Shown: positions 5,399 to 32,000, counted from the first letter of the stretch. The stretch is 32,000 nt of DNA from Candidatus Saccharimonadota bacterium (GCA_965229705.1 OZ245922.1:780001-812000), one strand, 5' to 3'. Program-made: numbers and translations. Notes: generated by a model not told the origin, from the sequence alone.

Positions 5399-7429
5399 TT
5401 ACTTCTCCTCCATCGTCCAGACTCCATCCCAATCTTTTGGAGGTGGAGTCTGCATATATGCCCCACAGCGATTCTTATACACCTGAGAGACAGTATCTGT
5501 AACATACTTTCAAAAGTATCATCTCGCCTCTTCAAAATCCCTCTTTTGGTATGCATCAAGCCCAGAGAAATAATCCTCATACTTTCGCATATCAACATCC
5601 TCTTTCTTTCCGAGAAACTCGTATATCTGTACTGGTGTATCCTTTCATTTTACCCGAATAGTATCAATAAAACGAAATGCAAAATCATCCTTCGTTTTTT
5701 CATATACCGTATGACTCACACAAATATAAGTACCATAATATTTGTTCACTCACTCCAGACGAGAAGCCAAATTCACTGTGTCTCACAGAGCGGTAAAATC
5801 CATTTTTTTTCACACAGCCCCTATGTTTCCAATAATCGCATCTCCACTATGAAGTCCCACTCGAAACCGGATATTTCATCCAAGTTTCCTCCCCCAACGA
5901 GTATGAATATCTTGCAGTATTTTTCTTTGTTCCAAAATACTGAGAAGTACCTGAGAAAAATGTCTATGTTGCAGTTCTTCAAATGCCCCCCATATAGCCA
6001 TAATAGCATCCCCCTCATATTTATCTATGTGTCATCATCGAGACATAATACTCTCCGTCATGCAGGAGAGATAATCTCGAAGAAATGCTACAAGCACTTC
6101 TGGAGAAAGTCTCTCACTCATACTCGTAAATCCCTCAAGATCTGAAAAATAACATAAAAGATTTCGTCTTTCCCCATCCAGCTTTACATGTCCTTTTTCT
6201 GCAATAATCTCATCAGCAATAGACGAACTCACATACTGACTCAGAGCGGTATTGAGTTTGTTTTTATGAAGTGACTCTATAGCATACTTCAGACCCTGCG
6301 CAAGAGCAAAGCTCAGGATAAGAGTAAAGAAAAGTTCGATGGTATACTGCCAGAGCTCTCAGAGTAATAATACGGAAAGAAGAGGAAGAATTATCATTCC
6401 AAAACTCAGCATTAGTGCATGCGACACAATAATCACTCTATAGGAAAAACTCAAATGTATCAAAATACTCAAAAATACGAGAATCACGATAAATGATCAC
6501 TCCAAAATTTTTGGAAAGTATCTGAGAATATTCTCTGAAAGTAAAGTCGAAAGAATATTAGCATGGACATATACCCCGTACTCTTTACCAAAAGGCGTAA
6601 AAAACTCGTCTTTCAGACCATTTGCTGCAGGTCAAATAAGGATAATACTATTTTGAAAACCTATTGTATCTGAGAGCTCTTTGAGTTTTTGTGTATTGAG
6701 CAGATCAGAAAACGATATACGAGTATAACTCTTTGATGGAGCGTAGGATATCAAGATATTTTTATCTCCGGGTCTCTTGAGACTAAATCGTCTTTCAGGA
6801 GAAAATACATACTCATCTTGATGATATTCTCAAAGTTCCTGGGAAGAGTCTTCAAGATACATGTAGGAGAAAAAACTTCTCAGTATTGCCAGAGTAAAGT
6901 GCTCATATACCTCTTTATCTTGAAACTGTGGAGAAAAGCTATAGACAGTATTGGTACTTCGTTCAACACTAGGTGTGAGATACCCGTTTGGCAGAGTAGA
7001 AAAATATGCATACGGTTCTAATATATCTCCATCCTGATTTCTCGCTGATCCAAGAACAACTCTGCCTGGATACTTCTTGAGACTCTGAAGAAATAGAACA
7101 TCTTGATCTTTTTGTGATGGATCAAGAAATAAGATATCAAATGCCACTACTGCCGGATCATAGAAAAAAATATTTTCCAGAGCCTCTCCATACAAACTTC
7201 GAGGAAAAGGAAAAGTTCAAATATCATCAAAACTTTTTTCATCTATTTCGACTACTATGACCTGCTGGCTTTGTTGAAACATTCCAAGACTATAGCGAAG
7301 TTTTACAATGTTTTCATAGATTCAAAAGTTCAGGGAAGCAAAGAGGGGACTCATCAGAAAGACTATCGCAAATATAAAGAGGCTGATAATACAGCTCAAT
7401 CATATATGATAGGCTAGAAAGTGTTTCAT
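5399..7429 (-). CDS. CHASE2 sensor domain-containing class III adenylate/guanylate cyclase (676 aa)
   Basis: ATG 7429-7427 is followed by an N-terminal TM segment (MKHFLAYHIGLSCIISLFIFAIVFL). The CHASE2 region reads VIVVEIDEKSFDDIGTFPFPRS...VVAFDILFLDPS and is followed by hydrophobic helices. The cyclase core reads CYFSDLEGFTSMSERL...GGHIDKYEGDAIMAIWGA...GLHSGDAIIGNIG...FTALGDTVNLASRLEG. The frame was checked codon by codon for 5399-7456 and has no TAA/TAG. Stop is TAA 5401-5399. Confidence 0.87.
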
Positions 7430-8718
7430 TACTCAAGGAGATTTCAAAGAGAGTTATCAAGAGATTTTTGTATAAAATCATCAGCTTTTTGAAATGTATT
7501 CTCGACTCACTCACGCACATTATCCATATCTTTTGGAATATCAAGGTTGAATGTATCCATATCTCAAAACAATGATTCTAAATTTGTTTTTTGACTTGAG
7601 AGAAAATCTCATGAAAAAGAAGAGAGTTTTTCTGTCAGAAACTGCGTATCAAAATCTTCTAAAAGTCATGCATGGGTCTGAAAAAATGCAAAGCTCATCT
7701 CAAGGTCTCATCACTGCTGTCCTTTTTCGAGGATTTCTGTAAGATCATAGAGGGTGTTTTGTAGAAGATTTTGCTTTTCCTCTTCATCATCACTCAGTAG
7801 CATAAGAAATGTTTTATACTGCATTTTTTGAGAATAATTTTCTGTTCATGGAGCAACAAAATTGAGGTTTTGGTATTTTTGAATCATGGTGGTATAGAGC
7901 TCTGCTCTTTTGTTTGGCGAGAGTTGTGAAATATATGTTTCTATATCAGCAAAATCCTGGCTTTTCTCGAGTTTATCAAGTATCTTGTGAGACGAAGACA
8001 TATATTTGATAAAAGGGTTATTTGTATCAAGAGTCAGAGTATCTTGCAACCTTTCTTGAAGTTTTTTTAGATTTTCTTGATCAGCAAGAATATTGAGATC
8101 CGTCCAGACACTATCCTGAAATTTTTCAAGATACATAGCATAATCAATGAAATGTAAAGCTTTTACAGAAAAAGCTTTGCCTTCAGGTATCAAATAGCGT
8201 TCACCATTTTGTCATAATACTTCTACCATATGCTCTGTTACATGGAGAAGATTATTATCTACATCTACATCAAATGTTGTTCCTCGAACTCACGCTTCTA
8301 TATCGTCAAAGCTTTGGATAAAGTATGAGTCTTTCCCAATGTAGGAAGTAACTTGTGACCAAGACTTTCCTGCATCAAGTTGAAATGATATCTTGAGTGT
8401 TTCTCGACCAGGTGCAATAAAGTTTTCACGAACCCGCAAGAGAGAATTTCCAGAGAGGCGTGTCACGCTCCCATCTCACCATTCCAATACTCCAATACTC
8501 GACTCTCCTATCGTCCTAATAACATCATTTTCTACGATAATATGTTTTTTTCATGGGCTAATTCTCAGTTCATTTATTTTTGCATTTCCTTGTATCAGAT
8601 GAAAATAGGAATGGATATCTTGTTTCCGAGATGTATATCACCAAGTGAAATATCCTATAAAAATTATAGCAATGAGAAAGAATGCCCCAAAAAATGTATA
8701 TTTTTTTTGTTTTTCCAT
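7429..8718 (-). CDS. FecR-domain membrane protein (429 aa), translationally coupled to the downstream cyclase
   Basis: ATG 8718-8716 is followed by a TM segment (FFGAFFLIAIIFIGYF). The FecR-like beta region reads GDGSVTRLSGNSLLRVRE...AGVRGTTFDVDV. The frame was checked for 7429-8718. Stop TAA 7431-7429 shares one nucleotide with the cyclase ATG (TAATG). Confidence 0.72.
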
Positions 8719-9711: not shown

Positions 9712-10089
9712 TTACAAGTCTGAAAAATCTGCAGGAAAACTATCTAGCGTATCGGTATTGTAATCTGTATCAAAGTCATAACTCGGACTCACAAATATCC
9801 TATCTCCTATCTCCTCAATTTTTTCAAAAATCCTCTGAGGTTTGGCATAACGCTCAACATCAAGACCTAAGAGTCTCCCAAGAACCGGAAAAAGAAAAAT
9901 TGTCAGTACCGTAACTATCATACCAATCACTGCAAAACGAATCGTGTTAATCGCTGGCTTGATCTTATCATCTTTTCCTCATGAAAGTATCAGGAGTAAA
10001 CCTCCCCAAAGAATAAATAAGATAGACAAAATACCTGCCGCAAGAACAAAGAGAGAAATAGCCAGTAAGATGAACTCTCCTAAGTCCAT
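9712..10089 (-). CDS. Small 2-TM membrane protein, resembles CPR TrbC/VirB2-type (T4SS pilin-like) proteins
   Basis: ATG 10089-10087 is preceded by GAGG five nt upstream. The two hydrophobic helices are FILLAISLFVLAAGILSILFILWGGLLLIL and FAVIGMIVTVLTIFLFPVLG, separated by SGGKDDKIKPAINTI, and followed by an acidic tail. Stop is TAA 9714-9712. An ATG at 10140 is an alternative start. Confidence 0.55.
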
Positions 10090-10159
10090 CTTTGCCTCAA
10101 ATATAGAGTTAGAGGCAGCAAAAGCGGTTGCATATATCATAGCATATGTATTACAAAAA

Positions 10160-13625: not shown

Positions 13626-14567
13626 TTATAATTCCTTCAAATTCCCAATAATCTGGTCTATATCTGTATATCATTTTTTTTCTATATATTCATAAAACTC
13701 TTTTTGGATTCTCTGAAAACACTGGGTATCTTCTTTTCCAAGAACCGTCCCAAGTTGTACGAGAGAAGCTCCTGCTAAAAGATGTTCAAATACATCTACT
13801 CCATTTTTAATTCCTCCACAACCGATAATCTTCATTTTATCCCCCAAGAGTTTGTAAAACATGCGCACATTCGCGAGTGCTACGGGTTTGATATAGTCTC
13901 CTCCAAGTCCTCCAAGTCAACCTTTTGGTTTTATAAGAGGAGACTCTGTTTTTGGATCAATAATCAGCGTATTTCACACTGAGTTTATGCAAGTGATAAA
14001 TGAGATGGAATATTTTTTAAGTATGTCTGCCATCATTTGTGTATGCACTGGATCAAAGTAAGGAGGAAGCTTCAGCCCTATAGGCTTATTACCGGAAATT
14101 GCAAATATCTTTGTGAGAAGTTCATCGGAAGCTTCAAAGTCATAGGCTATCTGTGGTTTTCACACAACATTTGGACATGAGAGGTTGACTTCAAGCACAT
14201 CAACATAGTGGTCGTCTTGAAAATCTTGTACCAGTTGTAAAAAATCCTCATGACAAAATCCTACTATCGAAGCAATAATTGGTTTATGGGGAAATTGCTG
14301 TTTCAGCTCTGCAGCATATTCTCTATATTTCTGATAGCCATGATTGGCAAGACCGATGGAGTTGATACTCCCAAGTTCTACCTCCTTGTATCGAGGTTCA
14401 GGATTTCCTTCTCTTGGTTCTGGAGAGCAAGATTTCATCATAATAGCAGAAGACGATGAGTCTCAAAGGGCTTGGAGTTCTTCAAGAGTTGTACAGCGGG
14501 GACCAGATGAGTTATAAATTATATCTGGAAAGATGATGTTTCCGATGGTTTGAGTAAAAGTTTGCAT
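13626..14567 (-). CDS. pyrD: Dihydroorotate dehydrogenase, class 1 type (313 aa)
   Basis: ATG 14567-14565 gives MQTFTQTIGNIIFPDIIYNSSGPRCTT. Further motifs are SINSIGLANHG, EVNLSCPNV and GGLGGLGGDYIKPVALANV. The frame was checked for 13626-14162. The apparent TGA stop at 13673-13671 is read through (EKK-G-YTDIDQIIGNLKEL) to TAA 13628-13626. Confidence 0.9.
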
Positions 14568-14857: not shown

Positions 14858-15631
14858 TTAAAAAACTCTATACTTACCTCTTTCCAAAAATTCTAAATAT
14901 CACTTATCTCTTAATCTTTGTAACTGCTGTCTAATCTTATCTTTTACAAAATTATTACTTGGATATCTATCTTTTAACTCATTTTCAAACTTATAAATAT
15001 CTTGAAGAATAAATTCTTTTTTATCCAATCTTTCAATACATTTCATTATATCAAAAATCCATCATTTTGATTCTTGTTTTTCTTTTTCTAAAAACTTTAT
15101 TCTCTCCCATTCATGTAAAACTTCAGTTTTTGTCTTGTAATATCAATCTTTTATATAGTGTATTTTTCAACTTTCAGGAATTTTGTCAAACATAATATTT
15201 CATCAAGTCCATAGTCTTGTCTTTCAATTTTTCTGCTTCACTTTTGAAGTGTTTCTTTTTTGAATAATTTCAGGTATAAAAAAATATTTAGGTACTACTA
15301 AAAAGTTTTTAATTGTGTAATCTTCTGAGTATTTTAATACAAATAAATGCATAGGATCCTTTGTCATCTGTTTTATCATAATATCATATGCTCATCAAGG
15401 AATAGTTTTTCATAAACTTCCTTTTGAACTTTTTAACTCAAAGTTATCTTTACAGTCTCTACAAAACAAGTCATTTACAGGTTTATCTATTTCGTGTTGA
15501 ATTAGAGCACTTCAACAAGCAGGACAAAAGATATTGTTTGCCGTCCAATACTCTGTTAATATTTTTATTGCCTGTGTTCATCATATTTTTTTTCAATCAG
15601 CAATAGGATGATTTTGTGATAGATAAGGCAT
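14858..15631 (-). CDS. DpnI-family methyl-directed type IIM restriction endonuclease (257 aa)
   Basis: With TGA = Gly the product reads MPYLSQNHPIADGKKIGGTQAIKILTEYWTANNIFCPACGSALIQHEIDKPVNDLFCRDCKDNFELKSSKG...GGAYDIMIKQM...KNFLVVPKYFFIPEIIQKR...KGWIFDIMKCIERLDKKEFILQDIYKFENELKDRYPSNNFVKDKIRQQLQRLRDKGYLEFLERGKYRVF. This is colinear with S. pneumoniae DpnI as I recall it: CPNCG...DFYCNHCSEEFELKSKKG...DGAYATMM, and the C-terminal winged helix KEKIRQQLQILRDK...GRGKYR. Confidence 0.85.
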
Positions 15632-19278: not shown

Positions 19279-21666
19279 CTATAGAGAAAAAGGTATTTGA
19301 ATATCTTTTTTATGTTCCGTAAAAATACTCTTTCCTTCAAGTGCTTGTATATCTCAAATATGCAGTTTTCCCAGATAGAGATCCTCGATGGATCATCCGT
19401 TCAAAATATACTCTTCTACGGCATGATATCCATTCACATACACCACATCTTTCATACATGCTCCATCTTTACTCGGATCTTCAAAACCTCTCTTTACGCG
19501 AAGCATATAACGAAATACTTTTTCATAATCATGATGATAATACTCTGCAAGATGAGATATAAATTTTTTATATGAATGCTTGAGACCATAATAGAGAAAA
19601 TAATACCTCTCATAGAGTGAATAGTATTTTGCATCTTCCGAAGAAAGAAACCTATTTTGGTTATAAATAGCAATTCCTTCATCTGTTTCAATATAATAGG
19701 CTCCTCCTTTATGCATAATAGAGAGATCACTTTTTTTTCCATTAAGTTTTCTGAGATAATGCCCCTCTATCTCATGAGCAATAACTGCGCGTATCTCTTT
19801 TTTTCCAACCTTTGCGTCTTCTCTCATAATGAGTGTATCTCCTTTCATGGTAAAACGAGCTGGTATATCTCAGGACTTAAGGCGTATTTTTGTGTGATAG
19901 ATATGTGCAAATTTTTTGAGATACTCTTGAACATCTGCAAAAGATAAAAAGTCTTTTTCTGGAACTATATGATGTCTTGCTGCGATACGTTCTTTGGAAG
20001 TGAGAAAATACTCATCATGAATTTTCCCAAATATTTTTTCGCTATAGAGAGTCATATCTGCCGTATTTTGTTCCTGAAACGCGATAAAAAACTGGAGTTT
20101 GTAGAACATTTCCTCTTTTTTTCTTGCATATATTTCACTATAGGGAATATCTGGCACTTGTATTTTTTCGAGTTCTGCGAGTGTTTTTCGAGGATCAAAA
20201 GAGAGTTCGTTGTATTCAAAACGAGGAATATAATCTCCTTTTTTTTCTATAAATATATGTTTTTCTGTGGCAATATTCACGGGACGAATATACTTGAGTA
20301 TTAGCAGTTTTTTCTCAATATTCATCAGTTTTTTATCCAAATCTTGTAGTTGTTTTGTATACACTCAAACGATAGCTGTATTTTTACTTTTGCCGATTTC
20401 TAGCTCGGTAATTCTTGGTCATTCTGATTTCTTGTATTTAAAAGGATCAATGAGAAATCCCTTCAGAGCATTTCTTCATAAGACGATTTTTTCTTCTCCG
20501 AGATGGTCTATCTTGAAAGAAATATGTTTTTCTACTGCGAGAAGTTCTCCGTCGAGTTTGATACGCGTTTTTTCTCCAAAAGGGATTTTGAGTACTTCTG
20601 ATAAAAATTTTCTATCTATAAAACTCTCTGTTTCTGAAAGTCTCAATGAAGCAATATACTGATGTTCTCTATCATTATGAAAAATCTTAAAATACTCTTT
20701 TGTTCCTACTATCTTCTTTCATGAGATTTGTTCTATTCGACCTTCTAGTTCTCCAGAAAACAGATCTCTCCCAAGTCGCACTCCCTTCTCAACACTATTC
20801 ACCTCAATACCCGCAACTTTCTCAAGTCTGACTTTGAGTGGAGCATGATTGACATTTTGTATTTCAAGCCCTGGTCTCACATTGATTTCTAAAAGAAGTG
20901 GTCAGAGATCCTTATCAAGCACCACATCACATCACAAAAATACTATTCCTGTTGATTTTTGTACGGTTACGGCAAGTGAGAGTATTTTTTCCCACTGAGG
21001 AATGACAATTCCCCGAATATCTCAAATACCTGGTATAGAGTGTATGGTTTCGCCTCTGTGAGAAATAAAAGTGATTTTTCACGAGCCAATATCAATACCT
21101 GCGGCGCAGGCTCCTGCGTGTAGGTTTGCTTTTCCATCAGAGGCTTTGGTGGGAATACGGATCATTGCCATCACCGGAACCATATTATAGGAAACGATTC
21201 TGATATCGGGAAGTCCATAGCTTCACAAGAGGTCTATTTCTTCGGAGAGGATAATCTTTTTTTCTATGATGACCTTATCTTTTTTCCCTGAAAGAGAAAA
21301 AAATCCATCAATAATAAACTCTAAATGACGCTGAAAATCTTTTAAAGAAAATACTTCTCCTGAAGAGCTAACAAAACTTCCATCAGCTAAAGAACTATCA
21401 ATAATCAAAATTCCTTTTCAGCCATACCCGTTATTTGGTTTTACCACAAAGGGGGGTACAAGCTGTGATAGAGCCTCTTGTGAGATATCGGTTTCTCTAG
21501 AAAATATACACAAGGTCTCTGGAACTGAGACTCCTTGAGAGAGGAGGTATTTTTTGGTAGCAAGTTTTGAGTCAGCTATCTTTTTTGCCGCAAGAAAGTC
21601 TTCTCCCTTAATATAGAGAAGATTTCGAGCATTTTGCCCGAGAATACCTTTTCGAGAAAAAAACAT
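19279..21666 (-). CDS. Fusion protein (795 aa): RimK-related ATP-grasp (alpha-L-glutamate ligase-like) domain, a ~150-aa middle domain, and a DUF1704 / MATCAP-like HExxxH metallo-carboxypeptidase domain
   Basis: ATG 21666-21664 starts the N-terminal part MFFSRKGILGQNARNLLYIKG...VVKPNNGYG-G-KGILII...DIRIVSYNMVPVMAMIRIPT...ANLHAGA...LEINVRPGL, which has ATP-grasp motifs. The C-terminal part reads IRAVIAHEIEGHYLRK (HExxxH at 19776-19759)...YIETDEGIAIYNQ (QEGLA-like)...KDVVYVNGY. Track ORFs 21418-21711, 21223-21408, 19870-20364 and 19393-19848 share one frame. I walked codons 21222-20365 and found only TGA interruptions. Stop is TAG 19281-19279. Confidence 0.8.
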
Positions 21667-21667
21667 A

Positions 21668-22579
21668 TTAAGAAGGATTGCGAATATACTTTCGAGATGA
21701 GACAAAACCACTGAGAGCTCCTATAGAGAGGAAGATACATGCCTCCAGTATAAAGATGAGAAGCATATTTCCCTCATAAATTCCCGAGAGTGATGAGGCT
21801 CCGAGTATGAGCTGGAGATTAGAAAGAAAGAGCAGATACAAGAGTGTCGCTGCGATAAATGCTGCTAGTACATATATACATCATTGCAGAGCAAAAGGTC
21901 CATAGATAAACATTTTACTCCCTCATACCAGTCGAGTGATATATATCTCGTCTCGGTAATGATAAATAAAGTTTCCAATAATAGAGTAGATAATAATAGA
22001 TATTGATAACAAAAATGTGAGAATGATGATATAGAGACCTCCTTGCAAGATATGTAACACCGATATGACTTTGTCTATTCGTTCAAATTGGCGAGTATAA
22101 CTCGAGAAGTGCTCTTGTTTTTCTGTTTGGAAATCTCATTCTGATAAAATAAAGAGTTTGTTTTCTATGATCTTGTTGAGACTTTCATAGTCACTGAGAG
22201 GAATGTCTTCTATACTGATTGTTTCTGGAAGTGGATTTTGCCTCTCTAGTATTTGTACCAGATCTGGGTCTCGCTGCCGAAGCTCTTCGAGAAGTTCTTC
22301 TTTGGTCTTGTAAGTCACGCGTATACTTGGATGTGCTGCTGCAATATCTTCTTGAAGGTCAATGACTTCTAGAGAGTTTTGGTCATACTGTTCATCGAGG
22401 TACAGAGAGAGTGTGAGTCTCTCTCCAACACTTTCTATAATACGAACACTGACATTGTGTAAGAGCAGGAGTACATGAATAAAAAATATAAGCAGGGCAA
22501 TAATACACACAGAAGAAACACTCAAAAATGTATTACTCGCAATATTTTTAAAAGCGTAGCGTATGAGCCGATACATCAT
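21668..22579 (-). CDS. ftsX: Cell division permease FtsX-like protein (303 aa)
   Basis: MMYRLIRYAFKNIASNTFLSVSSVCIIALLIFFI forms TM1. It is followed by a periplasmic-like domain (LYLDEQYDQNS...ELLEELRQRDPDLVQILERQNPLPETISI) and three C-terminal TM segments ending ...GALSGFVSSRKYIRNPS. Stop is TAA 21670-21668. No ftsE is adjacent. Confidence 0.8.
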
Positions 22580-22731
22580 AGTCTTTTTCTGTGAATGAAA
22601 TATTTGGTATATTCTAATTTTTTGTAGAAAATTCGCAATTTAAAAAATGCAAATAGTCAAGGTATATATTTTGTCTTTTCATACAATAATATGATAGCAT
22701 AGAAGAGAATTTATTTTTTATACATATTTTT

Positions 22732-25017
22732 ATGGCACTTGAAACACTTCGAAACATTACACAATGAGGAATTGATACGACAGAACTCTCAAGAATTGAC
22801 GATATTCGACAAGAACTTGAAGATCTCGATGAGCCAGAAAAAACCGAGGCGATTCGTATTCTCGATGAGGCAATAGACTCTGCTGACGCAGACGTACGAG
22901 ACAACCTACAACTTCTCAAAGCTTCTCTTGAGGGAAACGCGATAGATATTTCTGATCATTTTACAGACGAAGCATCTGTGAGAAAAGCTCTAGAACTTCT
23001 TGAGTTAGATGGAGTCGAAATTATTGGTGGTCATCTTGTATGAATTGATAGTATTTCTATATCTGATAAGATGAAGAAACTCGAAACATTTATGGATCTT
23101 GCAAACTATATCGATGATCAAAACGCAAATGTCGATGGAAAAATACAAAGACTTCTCACGCTCATGAATCCTGAAACAGAATTTATAGAAGAACGACGCT
23201 TCCTCGCCTATGAGTATATGATGTCTCTTTATGGAGATGCACTTGAAAGATGAGTTCAGTTCATTTTCGATAATAATACCCAATCATATACCCTTGAAGC
23301 TCCTCAAGGTGTAGATACATCAGAGTTTGACTCTCTTCTCAGTATAGATACTCAGTATATCGACTTTGCGAAACTCAACTATATTATCTCTCGCAATAAC
23401 GCTCTTGAAGAGTCTATTGTCGATCGAGAATCATATACACTTTTTCTGATGGAAAACAATGCAAATATTCGATCTATCATGCAAAGTTTATGAATAGAAG
23501 ATATTGATGGGTCGAGCTGACTTCTTGCTCAAAGAGAAAGTGTTATTATACAATTACAAAGTATAATAGATACCTGAAATCTCGATCAAAAATCACGAGA
23601 ATATCTCGAAGTACAATGGCTCTATGAGTACCTTGCTTACGAACGCTATGAGTCACATTTTGAGGATAAAGATCTTTTTAGAAATATCAGTGCCTATAAT
23701 ACTGTTTTTGCTGAAAAAGAGAGTTTTATAGAAGCCGTAGATATGCAGTGAATAGATCTTGATAACTTTGATCCCAATGCTGATAAACCAGCATGGTATA
23801 GAGCAATGAAAGAGTTTGGTTTTAAAGGACTCATTATGGGAGTACTTCTCGCAATATTTTGAAGAGGACAACTACGAACATGATGATTTGCAGCTATTGC
23901 CGGTATTCTTGGAGCTGATGCAATACTCGAGTTTACTGATACCGCAACTGGAAATGATGTGAAGCGTGATGCTTTTGAAAAATTCGACGCTAAAAAAGTC
24001 ATCCCCCCAATAAATTATGGATCACTTGATCACCTTAAATACTCTCCAACACTTACACAGCTTACCAATGCTATGGAAGTGAAGAGAACAGCATGAGTAC
24101 AGTCCTTGAGTAATATTAAGACTGCTGCTATTTTTCAACAAGTTTTAGCAAATAATAATCTTTTACAAACAAATATTACTAATGTTTGACCAGCAGAACT
24201 CACTACCATGTATGCAAGTATAGGAAATACTAGTATCGATAATCAAACATTTTGACAGCCAATTCCATGAAGTGAACATGGTGAGATTACGCAAAATGAT
24301 TTTGATATCTTTCTCGGAGTACTTGAGTCTATACAAGATGATTCAGATATCACTCTCAATGATGCTTTACAAGTAAATAATGAGGTCGATCTCCAGCTGA
24401 GTTATCCAAATAATCCTGCAGATGCTCAAGAATTTACGAGGTTTGCATGAGATTTAGAAGCAAAACTCACAGAGATAGATACAAAGATCTCTGAAGCCAC
24501 AGAAAAAGATGCTCTCAAAAATACAATACTCACAAATTTTCATAACTGGTTTACTCAGAGTTATATCCCAAGTATGAATATCTCCTCTGCCAAGAATTTT
24601 TATCTCCTCCCAGAAGCATTTTACACTCCTATGGATAATGGTTCTATCGCTGAATGATATGACCGTATAAATGAAGCATTTTACAATGCTATTTATGAAG
24701 AGCGTTTTCATACAAGCATATTAAGTGCCGTAAAAGATAGTGATATAGACCTTATACAAGCAGCGAACGACCCAAGAATCAACAAGCAAATACAAAGTAT
24801 ACGTAGCCTACTCAATGGTAATTGACAAGCACAGGTGCAAAGTAGTACTATACAGGATATCTTTAACAACGATGCATCAACTCTTCATGATCTCTTAGAG
24901 GCAGTACATAGTATGACAGATAGCGCACATCAATCTGGTCTCAGTCCTCAAATACAGTCTATGCTCCGAGGAATAGATGCAGGTCTTGTAGGTGCAAGTT
25001 TAACACTAATACCGTAA
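22732..25017 (+). CDS. Large acidic protein A of unknown function (761 aa) with a central Gly-rich hydrophobic hairpin
   Basis: The ATG 22732 to TAA 25015-25017 span is 2286 nt. Every codon was walked: no TAA/TAG and 17 in-frame TGA. An upstream in-frame TAA lies at 22687. The hydrophobic hairpin is GFKGLIMGVLLAIFGRGQLRTGGFAAIAGILGADAIL (23818-23928). I recognise no catalytic or family motif. Confidence 0.8.
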
Positions 25018-25021
25018 AACC

Positions 25022-27205
25022 ATGGCTCCAGGTAATAATATAAATATTGGTCCTCAACTGGATCAGTCTATAAGTACTCCATCAAGTTCTACGGACTATT
25101 GAGCGCTCAATACAAAGATACAAGCGCTCCCACAAGGTCATCCCGCTCTACTGTCTTGGCAAGAACATGTTGTACCTCTCAGTACGAGCATAGCATCTCT
25201 GAGTCAACAAACTCGAAATGAACTCGAAAAAAACTTTGGTGTGATTTCCGCTCATATAGATGCTGGGAAGTATGGTGATGCGATATTTATGATTGAACAA
25301 ATACAAAATCTTCACGATAAGTTTACTCAGGCTCAAGACCTGATTAGTGCATCAACTCATACAAGAGAGGCTCTTACACAATGAGATGATATATATAGAG
25401 TAGATCGAAACAGAGACGGAACTATCACTCAAAACGAGCTTGATTTTCATAGAAGAAGATTTGAAGATACCAACTTTGTCTGATGAGTCTCTCTTGCAGA
25501 GTTCAATAGAGAGGTTTCTGCTCTCGCTGAAGATGTCGCACAAAATAATCCAAACATCACAGCTCAGGAGTATCAGGCCTATCTGCAAGCACTCTTTTGA
25601 GAGCAGGGGATAGATATAGTAAATAGAGAAGAAAGTGAGGTAAATGCTATTATCAGAGAGTCACTCACTCAAACAGAAGATCTCCTAAACAATGAATACA
25701 ATACAATATTTCAACAAACTACTGGACCATATGAGATAACTTTTTGAAGTCAGTTAGACATATGAGACTTTGACTTTACGGGGGATTTTCCAGAAGGGAA
25801 TCTCACTTTTGAAACTCAAGGCGAAGCCCTCGAATTTCTGCTCTTTATGAAAGAAACTCTCAACAATATGGAGCCAGGGAGCTGGATCCGAATGTGGGCA
25901 CATATGACTGAATGGTATCGCTGGTGAGCATCAGGTCTCACATCAGAGGCAGGTCGTGAAGGAGTTCAAAGTGCAGGGATAGGAATAGCAGCTCTCTTTG
26001 CAGTATATTTTTTGAAAATGGCTGGAGTTGCTATATGGTCATCTCTGCGATGAGACTCTGGAAACTCATCAGACTCCTGATCTTCTCGAGCTAGGCGTTG
26101 AACACGCTGAGACACATCAGGAGAAAGTACTTCTTCTCAGTGACCAAGTGAGAGATGATGATCAGCTGAAATGCGAGAAACCTTCCGTAATGATAGCCGT
26201 ATACTAAACGATATTTTTACTCGAAATGGTATAGAGCACCCTATGAGTCTTACATCAGATGAGTTTGATAGAATATCTGCAAGTCAAAACGCTTCTGATA
26301 TAGCCCTTAATAATACTATTCGTGAGTGATTACAGGCAAGAAGTTTCCCATGAGGACAAGCCCTTCATAACATTCTGCGTCTAGAGAGACCATCACTCAC
26401 ATGATCTCTTATTGATAATCATCGTCGAATTACCAATATATTTGCCTACATTGATAGTATCGACTGGAACAGTCTTCCTGACAATGCCCACCGCCCTACA
26501 AAAGCAGATTTTATGAGAGAAATCTCTACAAGAGTCTTCACAGAAAATGGAAAACCAAGAACCATCAGCATATGAAAATCCCTTTATAATGATATCACAG
26601 GACGAATGATCAATCTTGGTATTACCAATAGTGAAGGTATCGCGTCTCTTAAGAACAATATCAATGGAAACCCTACTCAGTTTACACCTGCTAATGATAC
26701 TCCTGCAGTAGCTTCTGTCGATGAATGAAGGACGACAGATTGATCGTCTGGATGACCATCAGAAAGAGTGTCAACAAGTAGTGAAAAAGAAGCAATGAAA
26801 ACCTATGGTTATAGTATCGTTGATAGAGTAAGACTTGAAGCGTTCTTGATTGATCCTGAAAGTATCAATACCCTCAGTAAGATACAAGTACGATCTATGA
26901 TAGATGACATTGTAAGAGATATGCCTGTGGATGAGCTCACTCAGGAAGCAGTAAGAGGAAAACTATTTCAGCGCTTAGGAGAATTTCAACCAGGTATGGA
27001 AATCCATTCTCTTAAAAGCATAAACGAACTAGGAGAAATATTTAACAGCATACTTTTGAGTCTCCCTGAAGAAGAGAGAAACACACTCATCAACTCTCGA
27101 GAATGAAGAGCTTTCGGTGAAGTATGAAACCTAGATGACTTCAGATTTGACAAGCATAAAATATATTTAAGAAGACTTTTCAGAGCTGCGTCTCGAGCAA
27201 TATAA
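25022..27205 (+). CDS. Large protein B of unknown function (727 aa) with an EF-hand-like loop, a hydrophobic hairpin and Ser/Gly/Arg-rich linkers
   Basis: The ATG at 25022 lies 4 nt after the gene A stop. The span is 2184 nt, ends at TAA 27203-27205, and was walked codon by codon with no TAA/TAG. It carries DRNRDGTITQNE at 25403-25438 and the hydrophobic segment GVQSAGIGIAALFAVYFLKMAGVAIWSSL at 25961-26047. Confidence 0.8.
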
Positions 27206-27215
27206 GATAAGCATT

Positions 27216-29357
27216 ATGTGTAGCGGTATAGAACACCTTTATGAAAACTCTCCTGAGTCAAAAAGCGAGAGTTTTATATGATTTGAGAGCTCCAGCTTTG
27301 AGTTTTTTCAGCAAGAGCTCGAGACAGGTCTCTATCATTACTATAGTCAATATTATATCAGTGAGATTCCTACGTGATCAGCGGAAAAACTACTTTGAGA
27401 TCTCAAAGCTCGGATAAGTACACAGTATAATAACTATGAAGTAGATGATGTGAAACCCGAACATTTTGCTGGTTTTTCTATACTCTCAGGTCTTTTAGTG
27501 GTTCAAGATACATGAGGTGTAGAGTATACCTATGACTTTAATATTGATGGAAAACTGCGATTTCTCTGATATGCTCCTCATGATATTCTTTGTGAGCGAA
27601 GAGATGTTATACGAGAACAGACTGAAGGTCTTGAAACAGTATTAAATGCGATGGATGAAGTATTTCAAAAAAATGAAAGAGAGTGGTTTGATAGGCTCGG
27701 AGAAAATGATATCTACAGTTGAGATTTGAAAGTACAAAGTATTGAGGGAGAGTCTCTCAAACTCCAATGAAAAAATATTATAGAGCTCTATAATCTTGCC
27801 CGAGAACATCTTCTCGCATTGCGTCTTGCTCGGTCAAGTATTCAGTGATGAGATCCCGTAGATATCAAAATGTATCATGTGGAAAAAAGATTTGCAGATA
27901 TGGCGCTTGGAATATGAGATGTATATGAAGGCTGAGCAAAACTTTTTGATCTCAGTCCCGATGAACTCAACTATCTCGTATCTCGTCAGATTGAGTCATT
28001 TGTTGACAATGATGATTTGCTATCATTTCTCTCTTCTCAGCATGAAAAAATGTACAGAAACACTCATAGGTCTGAGAGTGTTAATACAGCAAATACCATC
28101 TATTCTCAGGCTATACACAATGCTATATATCAACGCTTTACAAAGCAGTTAGAAATATCGGAGACAAATGGAGATATACAAAATCATGAAAAAATACAGT
28201 CCTCTTTTCTCAGACTTATAAAAATCATCACAGGAAGAGAGTGAAATGTATTGAAAATCCTGCATAATCCTGATCTTGCAGCGCATATAAGCTCCTATCT
28301 ACTTACTCGTCCATGAGGAATCATAGAAAGACTCAATGAGCATAATAACACTGATATTCTCCAAGAAGATCCTGAGATGAATGGAAGAACACCGAACCAA
28401 ACAATAGACAGATTTATTTCTGTGTGTCAAAAACGATTGTTTGAGTGAGAAACAAAAAAGTCAGTAAAAATATTCATCGCTGTAAAATACGGTATCCCTA
28501 TGAAGCTCCTCTCATGAGCAAATGATCTATGAGATTATTGAGAACTCAGTTTTCAAGAGAAATGATATGTCTCCCTAATGGAAAGAATGGCTGATCGATT
28601 GTCCACGCAAAAAAAGCTCTGATACACATACAGTTTTGAAAAGTTTGATGCTCTACTGCGAGATATCTCACAGGAAACTCAAAATGATCTGCGAAAATAT
28701 CTCAGTCGTGAATTTGATTCAAAGTTCTTTGATTGGAATGGTTTTTGAAGTGATGACTTACTCAATATCTCATGAGAGTCTGGACAACCACTTTTTTCTC
28801 AAGCTGATGGAGAACTCCTTGATCTATTTAATGATATTGAGTGAAATGGCTTGTTTGATTTTTCTGATGTGACAAATAGCTATATATATGAGTGAACTAA
28901 AATCGCTATTATTATTTGAGCTGCTGTTGTCCTATTTGTCGCAACATGATGAACATGAGCGGCTCTTGTTTGATGAAGTATTATCGCGCAGTGAGCGGTC
29001 GTATGAGCTTGAGCTACAATGGCTTCTTGGGCTACCCATCCTCTATGACATGACACACATCTTGAAATGCTAACGGATTTGTGATCTGATCTTGCTATCT
29101 GAACGGCTTTGTGAGCATGATGATGAGCACTAGGAAAACTCGCAATAGGCTGAGCAGGTATTACTTCTGTAAATGGTTTTAAAACAGCGGCTCGAAACTT
29201 TTCTTTTATTCAAGCACCTGATTTGACGAGTGGTATTGCGATAGAAATGTTTGCAAGATATCCCACAATATCACGTATTTTCCATGCTTGAGAGATTATT
29301 ACATGAAATGATGAGTTTGAACTGACAGATATAGAAAAACTTCCTGATTTTTCATAG
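27216..29357 (+). CDS. Large protein C of unknown function (713 aa) with a C-terminal glycine-zipper membrane region
   Basis: The ATG at 27216 lies 10 nt after the gene B stop. The span is 2142 nt, ends at TAG 29355-29357, and was walked codon by codon. The C-terminal region reads GTKIAIIIGAAVVLFVATGGTGAALVGGSIIAQGAVVGAGATMASWATHPLGHD...LGSDLAIGTALGAGGGALGKLAIGGAGI. Eighteen of its glycines are TGA-encoded. Confidence 0.8.
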
Positions 29358-29434
29358 TATAAAAGAGCTTATTTTTTGTCAGAAAACAAAAAGTATGATA
29401 TCCTCAAAGTATATAATATTTTTTTATTATCACT

Positions 29435-31384
29435 ATGACAGCACCAAAACTCGAGACACTTGTCTCTCCATGAACACCAGAGACTCCTGAAACCATGAGT
29501 CCTGACCCGATGAGTGATGAAGCAGTAAACAAGCAACTTTTACGAATAGGTATTTCTCCTGAAAATCTTGATGCTGATATGAGGGAAAGGTTTCGTGAAG
29601 CTCTCACGCTCTATACCACCTCTCCTGATAGTAACCTCGCACTTCTCGAAGAACGTGTTGGACAAGGATTTACAACAGAAGATGAAAAAGTCGTAGAGCT
29701 CACTCGCTGGATAAACGAACATCATCCTGATTGAGGGACTTCTCAAGGTATACAGTGAGAGTTTGAACAGCTCTGAACCATCTTTCAGTGAGGAATATTT
29801 TCTCATATTCAAAACTTTTTTTCTGATACATTCAAAAATATATTTTCGTCATTTTCTACCGGAAATGAAGCTCAAGATCAAGCTGTTGAATGAATTTTTT
29901 GAAGAATTTTTAAAGGAATTTTTGGATTTGATGTGTCAGCCACTGATGAAACTCAGCCCGAAGATAATAAGACGTGAGAAGAAGGAATATGACAAGAGAG
30001 ATGATCAGAGACCAGCATCGAAACTGCTGAAAATCTCACTATATCACCCGAAGTCATTCCACCTCATATACAATGATTTTATAATACTGGACTGCGAACT
30101 ATTCTCTTTCTTGGTGGGTATGAGTGAGGAAATGTTGGTGAGAGTGAAACATTTTTAAAAAATTATTTTTATACTGAAAATCTCGCTCTTACAGACATGT
30201 CAGCTCTCGAAGTCTCTGAAAGTCAAAACGAAACAACTCAAGAGGTATGAGAAAGTATGTATGAAGCATTTGAGCATCAAAGGGTTCGTGATATTCTTTC
30301 TGTGAGTCTTTCATCTGAAAACCTCAAAAATATTATCAAACCTGCAGGAATGACAAATACCATACTTGCATCTAAAATGTGAATCGATACAGAGTCTGGT
30401 ATACAACGTTTAGAAGAAATATATGAAATATCACAAAAAAACGGTTTTGACTACCGAGAGCTCCCTATTCATGAAATATCTCTTTTATATGCTTTTTCGG
30501 CGCTTTGACCTGCTGCAGGGCTCAGTGAGACTCTCGCATGATGGGTATGAAACAGCGAATCATCTATAAATGAAGATGAGATTATCACGGCTCTTGCTAA
30601 TAGTACCTACATAGACAACGACTTGAGCCGAGCTTTTTTAGAAACTGAAATAGCTCAAGGATGAAGATGACTTCTTGAATCCAGTGAAGATGCAAGAGTC
30701 AAAGAACTTCTGATAGAGTATTTACAGCAAGAACAACTCAGTCAAGATCACCCAGCATTTCAGCAGATAGAGGAACTGATTTCATATAAAGATTTTGTAT
30801 TAGAAGATCTGATAGAACAAGATATTTTTCAGCTCAATGAAGAAGAAAAAACTGCTATAAAGCAAGGTCTCAATTATGGGAAAATCACACTTCTCTATGA
30901 GTCTCTTCATGGAAAAAAAGAAGTATGAGATGCGCAAATATTTAGTATCATTGCTCTTTTTGCCTCTATTTTACGATCACAAATAAATAATGAGGCAGCA
31001 ACAGAGTATTTTTGAAGATTTAGCAATATTAACTCTGCGTCAAATGTATTTACTGATAACCAGATACAGCTCATCTCCGCATATACAGAGTCTGTAAGTT
31101 TAGAGGCTTGGTCTCTACTTATCGATCAGGCTTTTGGGTGAGCGCGCATGATAAATGGCTATGTACAATGAGCAACGGGAGTTGACTCTACTATTGTTGG
31201 TGCTGGTTTAATGGGTAGTGCTGTTGCCTTATGAAGCGCGACAACAACGAGAAATTTTCAATGACAATTAGTTCCTAGGGCGTGAATATTGCCATCCGCC
31301 ATTCGAACAATAGCGCGTAAGGCATGATGAGTATGACTCGTACTTATAGGCCTTGATGCAATCACATACGCATCAGAGGAATAA
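29435..31384 (+). CDS. Large protein D of unknown function (649 aa) with C-terminal Gly/Ala-rich hydrophobic segments
   Basis: The ATG 29435 to TAA 31382-31384 span is 1950 nt and was walked codon by codon. An upstream in-frame TAA lies at 29414. The C-terminal segments are GATGVDSTIVGAGLMGSAVALGSA (31169-31240) and AGGVGLVLIGLDAITYA (31322-31372). Confidence 0.78.
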
Positions 31385-31388
31385 ACAA

Positions 31389-31420
31389 ACTTTCAGGAAG
31401 CTCTGAGAAAGTCCTTTTTT
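31389..31420 (+). terminator. Possible weak intrinsic terminator after gene D
   Basis: Imperfect stem ctttcag / ctgagaaag (31390-31396 / 31403-31411, one bulge) followed by tcctttttt. Confidence 0.3.
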
Positions 31421-31541
31421 CTCTCCTTTTACAAATGAGAGATGGCTCGATAGAGCCAGAGAGGATTAGAAAATCTACGAATACTATTGAGATAATTTTA
31501 AAGCAGTATACTATAATTATCTTTACTCACTCTCACTATAC

Positions 31542-32000
31542 ATGCACCTCTCAAACTTTGACTACCATCTCCCACCCGAACTCATAGCCCAATCAGCAGC
31601 TGAACCCCGAGACAGTTCACGACTCCTCTGTCTTGAGAGAACATCTTGAGAGATACAAGATGCTATTTTTTCTGATATTGCGGATAAACTCTCTGAAAAT
31701 GATGTCCTCGTAGTCAACGAAACTCGCGTCATCAAAGCTCGCCTAAAATGAAAAATATGATGAACAGGAAAAGATTGTGAAGTATTTCTCCATAAACAAA
31801 TCTCTGATAACTCCTGGGACTGTCTTGTGTATCCCGGAAAAAAACTCAAACCAGGAACGCAAGTAATTTTTCCTTTTTCGAGACTCACTCCCTCCAATTC
31901 CACCTTATGAAGTAGGGAAGAAATCATCAGCGAACAGGATGGATTTACTGCGAAAATAGAAAGTGTATCTGAAAAATGAAGAATCGTTTCCTTCTCCAAA
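31542..32000 (+). CDS. queA: S-adenosylmethionine:tRNA ribosyltransferase-isomerase, N-terminal part (runs off the window)
   Basis: [71 protein letters not shown] is the canonical QueA N-terminus. A TATAAT lies at 31512-31517. Confidence 0.9.

Follow-up and report, generated by a model that had tools for sequence, protein, structure and literature searches.

A four-gene array between ftsX and queA in a UGA-glycine bacterium encodes large, putatively membrane-anchored proteins that match no known family

The window analyzed here is a 32-kb stretch of DNA (32,000 nucleotides, 36.7% GC) from Candidatus Saccharimonadota bacterium (GCA_965229705.1 OZ245922.1:780001-812000). It contains four co-directional genes, designated A to D, which lie between a divergent ftsX and queA. 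These are real genes of a genome that reads UGA as glycine, and they form an operon-like array. As judged by sequence searches, their products match no known family or domain, and C and D define new families. Our preferred reading, to which we assign a probability of roughly 0.4, is that they form a lineage-specific, multi-subunit envelope complex, anchored by membrane hairpins and facing the cell wall or a host.

It is believed that bacteria in which UGA encodes glycine, namely Gracilibacteria and Absconditabacteria, live on other bacteria or prey on them. To our knowledge, almost nothing has been described of the molecules with which they make contact and move material. The cluster is a candidate for such an interface: it is a fixed operon widespread in Gracilibacteria, is fast-evolving and predicted to be membrane-anchored, and there are hints of wall binding and toxin delivery. 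Relatives of the Gracilibacteria lineage live as epibionts or predators and have elaborate surfaces (PMC8080830, PMC11452946), and type IV pili, genes for secretion systems of types II and IV (T2SS/T4SS) and giant surface proteins have been described in related lineages (PMC8080830, PMC11452946, PMC12102498). The cluster is not described in that literature, a paper on the Patescibacteria T4SS offers no connection to it, and it appears to be undescribed as a conserved unit. A Gracilibacteria paper on "hypervariation" (PMC6851277) concerns a different repeat gene.

Four native genes in a recurring chromosomal position

When translated with table 11, the window yields 11 open reading frames (ORFs) of at least 150 amino acids (aa), totaling 6.4 kb; when TGA is read as sense, long ORFs are present throughout. 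Both TGA codons of the EF-Tu gene in the window align with conserved glycines of E. coli EF-Tu, and therefore the code is 25 (UGA = glycine), as in Gracilibacteria. An earlier analysis of the same DNA, referred to here as the sequence-only reading, had placed it in a code-25 lineage, and this agrees.

With TAA and TAG as the only stops, the ORFs of the cluster span positions 22690-25017, 25010-27205, 27171-29357 and 29417-31384. Taken from the first ATG, gene A occupies 22732..25017 (761 aa, net charge -68), gene B 25022..27205 (727 aa, -32), gene C 27216..29357 (713 aa, -42) and gene D 29435..31384 (649 aa, -57), all on the plus strand and separated by 4, 10 and 77 nucleotides (nt). This reproduces exactly the sizes, positions and gaps of the sequence-only reading. 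The base composition predicts TAA plus TAG at 0.0487 per codon, so that a frame of 650-762 codons would remain open by chance with a probability of 8e-15 to 3e-17. The GC content of A-D is 36.6-39.8% and 40-63% of their glycine codons are TGA. Both values resemble those of neighboring genes and thus, A-D are native. The earlier judgment that they are very likely real genes is upheld by this composition and by an open-frame chance below 1e-14. No plus-strand terminator-like site was seen within the cluster, in a scan whose promoter and terminator counts were the same as for shuffled sequence.

The flanking genes are also as first proposed. The divergent neighbor is ftsX (21668..22579, minus strand, 303 aa), which matches Pfam FtsX and FtsX_ECD. 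The downstream boundary is the 5' part of queA (31542..32000, plus strand), which encodes a QueA-like N-terminus and is cut by the end of the window.

FtsX was used as the search anchor to gather related loci (L numbers), 4 from Gracilibacteria genomes and 18 from metagenomes. Wherever the sequence upstream of ftsX is present, large ORFs (650-1374 aa, code 25) diverge from it, and these adjoin ftsX in L001, L003, L004, L008, L010, L014-16 and L020. Around members of the C family described below, the recurring frame consists of ftsX, an E- or A-position gene of 620-760 aa, a G gene of 1020-1300 aa, an H- or B-position gene of 890-1370 aa, a C-like gene, a small Gly-rich gene of 130-190 aa, a D-like gene of 600-850 aa, and queA. 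In L027 (GCA_020631485.1), for example, ftsX is followed by genes of 757 and 1029 aa, a C-like gene of 713 aa, an insertion sequence, a gene of 600 aa and queA. In L025, genes of 694, 1253 and 1097 aa stand between ftsX and the C-like gene, and in L029, genes of 623, 1269 and 1163 aa precede the C-like gene, which is followed by one of 843 aa. L023 carries a B-like gene, a C-like gene, genes of 168 and 698 aa, one reverse-strand gene (225 aa) and queA, while in L020 a C-like gene of 1232 aa and a gene of 901 aa separate ftsX from queA. The largest of these sets is that of L035, where ftsX is followed by genes of 1018 and 888 aa, a C-like gene, genes of 516, 182 and 702 aa, a gene for a 483-aa PG_binding_1 protein, and queA. 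QueA (Queuosine_synth) is also the downstream boundary in L020, L027 and L035. The B-position gene ends 3-19 nt ahead of the C-like gene in 8 loci, and the two are always adjacent. The sequence-only reading had held that a lack of conservation or synteny would speak against it; instead, the cluster turns up between ftsX and queA in many Gracilibacteria contigs.

L037 has the gene set of L035 in the opposite orientation, running from queA to ftsX. Compared with window 21668-32000, the cluster in L037:1-15619 lies as a whole the other way round with respect to its flanks, which are the same two genes. In addition, small, very Gly/Ala-rich genes (168-197 aa) directly follow the C-like gene in L023 (3670-4176), L031 (6752-7321), L037 (12073-12585) and L002 (7019-7612). 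In L035, the small gene (182 aa; 13845-14393) comes after the 516-aa gene, and in the window there is none in the 77-nt gap between C and D.

Protein families, layout and the predicted C-family fold

No significant match for A-D was found in Pfam, NCBIfam, PHROGs or PADLOC, the defense-system models of the last being searched at E <= 0.01. Searches of PDB sequences with A, B and C (phmmer) and with a D-family profile produced nothing significant, and a PDB profile search with the first, 7-sequence C-family alignment was empty. Together with a structural comparison made for the C family, these searches agree with the earlier statement that no family can be assigned. We rate the cluster as new, both in its protein families and as a set of genes, and the function assigned to it is predicted.

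In contrast to A and B, protein C belongs to a sizeable family. An exhaustive HMMER search of 1.84 billion representatives with P0001 gave 64 matches, of which 62 are true relatives, so that the family comprises at least 62 proteins. Members are mostly 650-800 aa long, and every one that is named is a "hypothetical protein [Candidatus Gracilibacteria bacterium]". Window C matches the 62 proteins with E-values down to 1.8e-46, and in blastp its matches to the syntenic L023_C, L027_C and L025_C have E-values of 1e-51 to 1e-46. The family shares the motifs AMDxxF..N..EWF, GIGDxYEGGAKxF, FxKIITGR and LFDxxxDIxGNGLFDxSD, a Gly-zipper hairpin and a PxGxDT loop, all of which window C fits. For protein D, homology to L029_843, the product of the gene after the C-like gene, extends over the full length (E 5e-16, residues 35-617), and the D family has 6 members, including sequences from L023, L031, L035 and L002. 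The existence of these homologues of C and D shows that the genes are not filler.

For A and B, no significant homologue was found by BLAST, HMM or hhalign, and both have positional equivalents only, those of A lying beside ftsX and measuring 623-757 aa. Neither could be placed in families E, G or H by hhalign or HMM. The likenesses seen are weak: A to family E (E 0.024), B to family H (E 0.0035) and B to a fragment from L001 (E 0.009), and the C-terminal end of B is weakly like that of L023_B.

Nearly all C-family members are stored as table-4 mistranslations. The database copies of window C and D are P0001 and P0067, both translated with TGA as Trp, which turns the glycine zippers into Trp-rich strings such as WAAVVLFVATWWTWAALVWW. 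When C alone, a 4-sequence C alignment or a D alignment was used as the query, word-indexed searches yielded the mistranslated self entries and one homologue only, and a search for contigs that encode P0001 found none. Mistranslation of this kind in public protein sets obscures glycine zippers and makes rapid homology searches fail. In searches of the local ORF set, phmmer missed relatives that BLAST detected.

The C protein also changes fast relative to the genes that flank the cluster. Between the window and L008, identity is 62.5% for FtsX, 57.7% for the ATP-grasp neighbor and 25.1% for C; between the window and L027 the corresponding values are 47.7%, 50.3% and 32.7%. Positional pairs of A, B and D are 22-24% identical. 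Fast divergence relative to neighbors is typical of exposed proteins.

All four proteins are acidic, and a motif and sequence scan of A-D found no P-loop, HExxH or signal peptide, in agreement with the sequence-only reading, and no CxxC or hydrophobic N-terminus. The hydrophobic, Gly/Ala-rich segments are positioned as that reading claimed, centrally in A and B and C-terminally in C and D. In A, residues 361-402 (23812..23937, plus strand) form a bilobed hydrophobic hairpin, GLIMGVLLAIFG - RGQLRT - GGFAAIAGILGADAIL, with short lobes of 12-16 residues. B has a single hydrophobic Gly/Ala-rich segment at residues 313-342 (25958..26047, plus strand), followed by a Ser/Gly/Arg-rich linker. In C, the hydrophobic Gly/Ala/Ser-rich segments 557-603 and 626-652 contain 10 and 8 small-xxx-small pairs, respectively. 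D ends in two moderately hydrophobic Gly/Ala-rich segments, 583-602 and 626-647 (residues 583-647; 31181..31375, plus strand). These are weaker, and none exceeds the Kyte-Doolittle (KD) threshold of 1.4 over 19 residues.

The sequence-only reading also held that all four proteins share one architecture. Pairwise comparison of A-D found no detectable mutual similarity and, as a result, what they share is a likeness of layout and not paralogy. The loose resemblance stands, and the distant paralogy for which profile alignment had been proposed is not detectable. The proposed calcium-binding loop fares less well. Residues 128-140 of B, DRNRDGTITQNEL (25403..25441, plus strand), fit the EF-hand loop pattern PROSITE PS00018, but this is a lone, unpaired loop that scores far under the Pfam thresholds (EF-hand_5, 13.9 vs 25.9 bits; EF-hand_1, 11.8 vs 25.4 bits).

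The dense small-xxx-small spacing in the hydrophobic helices of C resembles that of glycine-zipper proteins and microcin E492. Unlike these small lipoproteins and peptides, A-D are 650-760 aa long with large structured domains. In phmmer, C 613-648 showed a weak similarity to microcin E492 (E 0.055) that was compositional and not significant, and the Pfam models Gly-zipper_2TM, _Omp and _YMGG gave no A-D match at E <= 1 in hmmscan.

AlphaFold2 was used to model the C family, with P0014, a correctly translated member, as the query and 53 homologues aligned (54 sequences). The model has a mean predicted local distance difference test score (pLDDT) of 82.4 and a predicted template-modeling score (pTM) of 0.76. 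Its N-terminal domain (16-123) is small and of the alpha/beta type. A long helix (124-161) comes next, then an all-helical domain that reaches residue 545, and finally terminal helices at 554-583, 588-609, 617-642 and 649-680 (22-32 residues each). Mapped onto window C, these predicted helices correspond to residues 551-582, 586-607, 615-640 and 655-690, so that C 551-690 (28866..29285, plus strand) would hold four long C-terminal helices, the first two of which are the glycine-zipper hairpin. In Foldseek searches with the P0014 model, no PDB match fell below E 0.09 (TM-scores <=0.26) and no BFVD match below E 0.1. The C-family fold is thus confidently predicted, and the model is without a structural neighbor in either database. 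A model of D, made from two table-4 (TGA=Trp) sequences, was unusable (pLDDT 37.4).

The membrane topology of the C family is suggested by the charges of its loops. Across the family, positive residues outnumber negative ones in the loop that joins helices 3 and 4 (K+R 3.24 vs D+E 1.17). Loop 2-3 is acidic, as are the 15 residues ahead of helix 1, and helices 1 and 2 are joined by about 6 neutral residues. By the positive-inside rule, this pattern is consistent with four transmembrane (TM) helices with both ends outside. The peptidoglycan (PG)-binding modules of some relatives lie in the same direction. L029_C838 has a C-terminal PG_binding_1 domain (27.2 bits, cutoff 23), and in P0002 and P0003 the score is 21-22 bits. 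Taken together, the loop charges and the C-terminal PG_binding_1 of some members suggest that both ends of C-family proteins face outward. PG_binding_1 is also found towards the N-terminus of L008_1226, a G-family protein (23.1 bits), a LysM match in L020_1232 stays below threshold, and the last cluster gene of L035 encodes the 483-aa PG_binding_1 protein.

A candidate envelope complex and its alternatives

In the preferred reading, A-D would be an operon native to Gracilibacteria that encodes the subunits of a membrane-embedded envelope complex. Each subunit would be a large, acidic, mostly helical protein, held in the membrane by Gly/Ala-rich helical hairpins with small-xxx-small packing. 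The anchors would be one hairpin each in A and B, four helices in C and the two weaker segments in D. The membrane domain of the C family is most likely arranged with the two protein ends outside, on the side of the cell wall, and the products of the adjacent B-position and C genes probably form the core pair. The complex would work at the cell surface, touching the wall and the host or prey cell. Here, we infer the topology, the formation of a complex and the role at the surface or in host contact. A host-interaction or pore-forming function, of the kind raised earlier, is suggested indirectly by the loop charges, the peptidoglycan-binding modules of relatives, the fast divergence and one toxin-like fusion, which is explained below.

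Several observations weigh against an envelope complex. N-terminal domains of 350-550 residues are not normally carried across a membrane by Sec/YidC, and an outside location needs a further export route, since A-D have no signal peptide. The short hairpin lobes of A also suit monotopic insertion from the cytoplasmic face, and hydrophobicity is weak in helices 3 and 4 of C (KD 0.2-0.7). The PG-binding modules are rare, being present in 2 of the 54 C-family members, and Pfam finds none in A-D of the window. Finally, synteny among relatives extends over the whole region (EF-Tu, pyr genes, ftsX), so that linkage to ftsX and queA may be inherited order and not functional coupling, and as A and B have no demonstrable homologues, the four-gene set is conserved by position only.

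Large membrane proteins have a precedent in a sister lineage. In Vampirococcus and other Absconditabacteria, giant membrane or surface proteins of unknown function, 1392-4163 aa in length and mostly with known interaction domains, have been described (PMC8080830). The authors of that study propose that they mediate host recognition and attachment (PMC8080830). A-D are likewise large and apparently membrane-associated, and come from a lineage that also reads UGA as Gly, but at 650-760 aa and with no known domain, they are set apart from the giant proteins by size and by the domain descriptions.

An alternative that retains appreciable weight, though on balance we consider it unlikely, is that the proteins are exported effectors or translocators. 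Here, the glycine-zipper helices would insert into the membrane of the host or prey, and C-family proteins would serve for delivery, their C-terminus emerging on the far side. The absence of signal peptides, together with topology signals that point outward, fits such a role, as do the variable C-terminal extensions within the C family. The most suggestive of these belongs to P0046, a lone paralogue of 1088 aa with a C-terminal extension that follows a Ser/Asn/Asp-rich linker. The best PDB sequence matches of its last 235 residues are of the alarmone-synthetase type: SaSAS (8vx3, E 0.014), the type VI secretion system toxin Tas1 (6ox6, E 0.021) and RelA (three chains, E ~1.2), all aligning over the catalytic synthetase core. 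The similarity is marginal. On first impression the tail was taken for RelA/SpoT, but it has no match to Pfam RelA_SpoT, and the marginal PDB matches leave that assignment unconfirmed. Other extensions are PG_binding_1 in P0002 and P0003, while those of P0017, P0026, P0031 and P0038 are unrecognized.

In the locus that carries P0046 (L036:10001-15316, ena:ERZ23492089 scaffold_11), this gene is followed by a 172-aa gene with an 88-aa gene on either side, the two being near-identical, and then by a gene for an HD_4 (PF13328) hydrolase. The layout downstream, with its duplicated small genes and HD_4 gene, looks like that of a toxin with immunity genes. If P0046 were such a toxin, the C-terminus of the C family would be delivered into the cytoplasm of another cell, although the evidence is marginal. 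Polymorphic toxins of the Tas1 and CdiA type, which join a membrane-translocation region to a variable C-terminal toxin, offer a possible parallel, with a Tas1/SAS-like tail in P0046, other add-ons at C-family C-termini, and glycine-zipper helices that precede the variable end. On the other hand, the trafficking domains PAAR, LXG, Rhs and TPS were undetected, window C has no toxin tail, and the cluster has no immunity-like gene, C being followed by the 77-nt gap and then D. Moreover, the core genes are single-copy and occupy a fixed, housekeeping-like chromosomal site, which is unusual for effector genes, and there is no secretion ATPase or known secretion gene in or beside the cluster, in the window or in the loci.

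A second line of argument for export comes from the N-termini. Among 19 cluster proteins, 8, drawn from several families, carry the motif [ILVFM]-E-[TS]-[ILVFMAP] in their first 12 residues, vs 0 of 75 other ORFs, with an expectation of about 0.02 per protein from the composition of the cluster proteins themselves. It reads LETL in both A and D (window 22732-22770 and 29435-29470), and also occurs in proteins of L008, L010, L015 and L020. This hydrophobic-Glu-Thr/Ser-hydrophobic motif may be a shared targeting or export signal, but it was chosen post hoc and against a redundant background of some 30 independent families. A more specific proposal, which we regard as doubtful, would make the C family a new translocation module of a Gracilibacteria-specific membrane-insertion and delivery apparatus at the site of host or prey contact. 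Its C-terminus, carried across a membrane, would be bare in the core operon, PG-binding in certain members and a Tas1-like nucleotide-pyrophosphokinase toxin in one paralogue, and the N-terminal motif would be the export signal.

The layout of A and B, with helical soluble regions around a bilobed hairpin of about 40 residues (A 361-402, B 313-342) and no signal peptide, is reminiscent of chlamydial inclusion-membrane (Inc) proteins and of the type III secretion system (T3SS) translocators IpaB and YopB, which also come from organisms that live on other cells. The segments of C and D, in contrast, are C-terminal. A-D gave no Pfam or NCBIfam match beyond noise at E <= 1, the C-family model has no Foldseek match below E 0.09, no T3SS genes are seen in the window and loci, and the C family is, as far as its members are named, confined to Gracilibacteria. 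The resemblance of A-D to Inc proteins, T3SS translocators and polymorphic toxins is one of layout only.

It is improbable that A-D are cytoplasmic-face membrane scaffolds, with hairpins dipping into the inner leaflet while the acidic domains stay in the cytoplasm and shape the membrane, for instance at a site of division or attachment. The lack of signal peptides, the large domains on both sides of the A and B hairpins, lobes in A that are too short for classical TM helices, a mainly helical prediction for all proteins and a stable place beside the division gene ftsX are each compatible with such scaffolds. However, the PG_binding_1 domains in cluster proteins of the C family, the G family and L035 would be senseless in the cytoplasm, the four helices of 22-32 residues in the C-family model and their charge pattern fit a transmembrane bundle, and very fast divergence is unusual for internal scaffolds.

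Still less credence can be given to a role as wall-remodeling partners of FtsX, that is, coiled-coil adaptors driven by FtsEX to control peptidoglycan hydrolysis in the manner of EnvC, PcsB, CwlO and RipC. Like those activators, the cluster genes lie beside ftsX, in nearly every locus and even where the cluster is inverted, they encode long helical regions, and some of their relatives have peptidoglycan-binding modules. That adjacency is partly built in, as the loci were found via FtsX or lie in a broadly syntenic region. There is no adjacent ftsE, and no LytM, CHAP, NlpC/P60, amidase or activator domain was found in the 4 window, 26 locus and 54 C-family proteins. Furthermore, known FtsX partners are Sec-secreted and have no TM hairpins, whereas A-D have predicted hairpins and no signal peptide.

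Lastly, the idea that A-D are lineage-specific filler, or what is left of a prophage or mobile element (tape-measure-like proteins, for example), to which the lack of annotation-library matches, the lack of detectable homologues for A and B and the presence of tape-measure proteins among non-significant BFVD matches might lend some color, is largely refuted by open frames that chance does not explain, native composition and TGA use, the many full-length homologues of C and D and the confidently predicted family fold, a chromosomal position fixed across genera, and the absence of a PHROG match, of any C-family relative among 2.9 million viral contigs (scanned with 9 closer sequences) and of a BFVD match better than E 0.1.

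Neighboring genes in the window

The gene directly after ftsX (19279-21666, minus strand) encodes a 795-aa fusion of an ATP-grasp domain (ATPgrasp_ST, E 9e-55) and a MATCAP/DUF1704 metallopeptidase-like domain (E 4e-27). It occupies the same place in L001, L004, L007, L008, L013, L027 and L031, and may pair an amino-acid ligase with a carboxypeptidase. Among the pyrimidine genes, there is a restriction-endonuclease-like gene of 257 aa (14858-15631, minus strand) with a GC content of 25.7% vs ~37% for its neighbors. Its composition looks foreign, yet it is fully recoded, with TGA making up 88% of its Gly codons.

At lower coordinates, a 142-aa protein with two hydrophobic helices is encoded at 9712-10140 (minus strand), and its positional counterpart in L037, which lies beside a KH-domain gene, has a weak match to T4SS_pilin (PF18895). 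A 429-aa protein with one N-terminal TM helix (7429-8718, minus strand) precedes a CHASE2-type membrane adenylate/guanylate cyclase of 676 aa (5399-7429, minus strand). The same cyclase is found at the edge of L034 and L037, and the copy in the window was identified by eye and from the Pfam labels of these counterparts.

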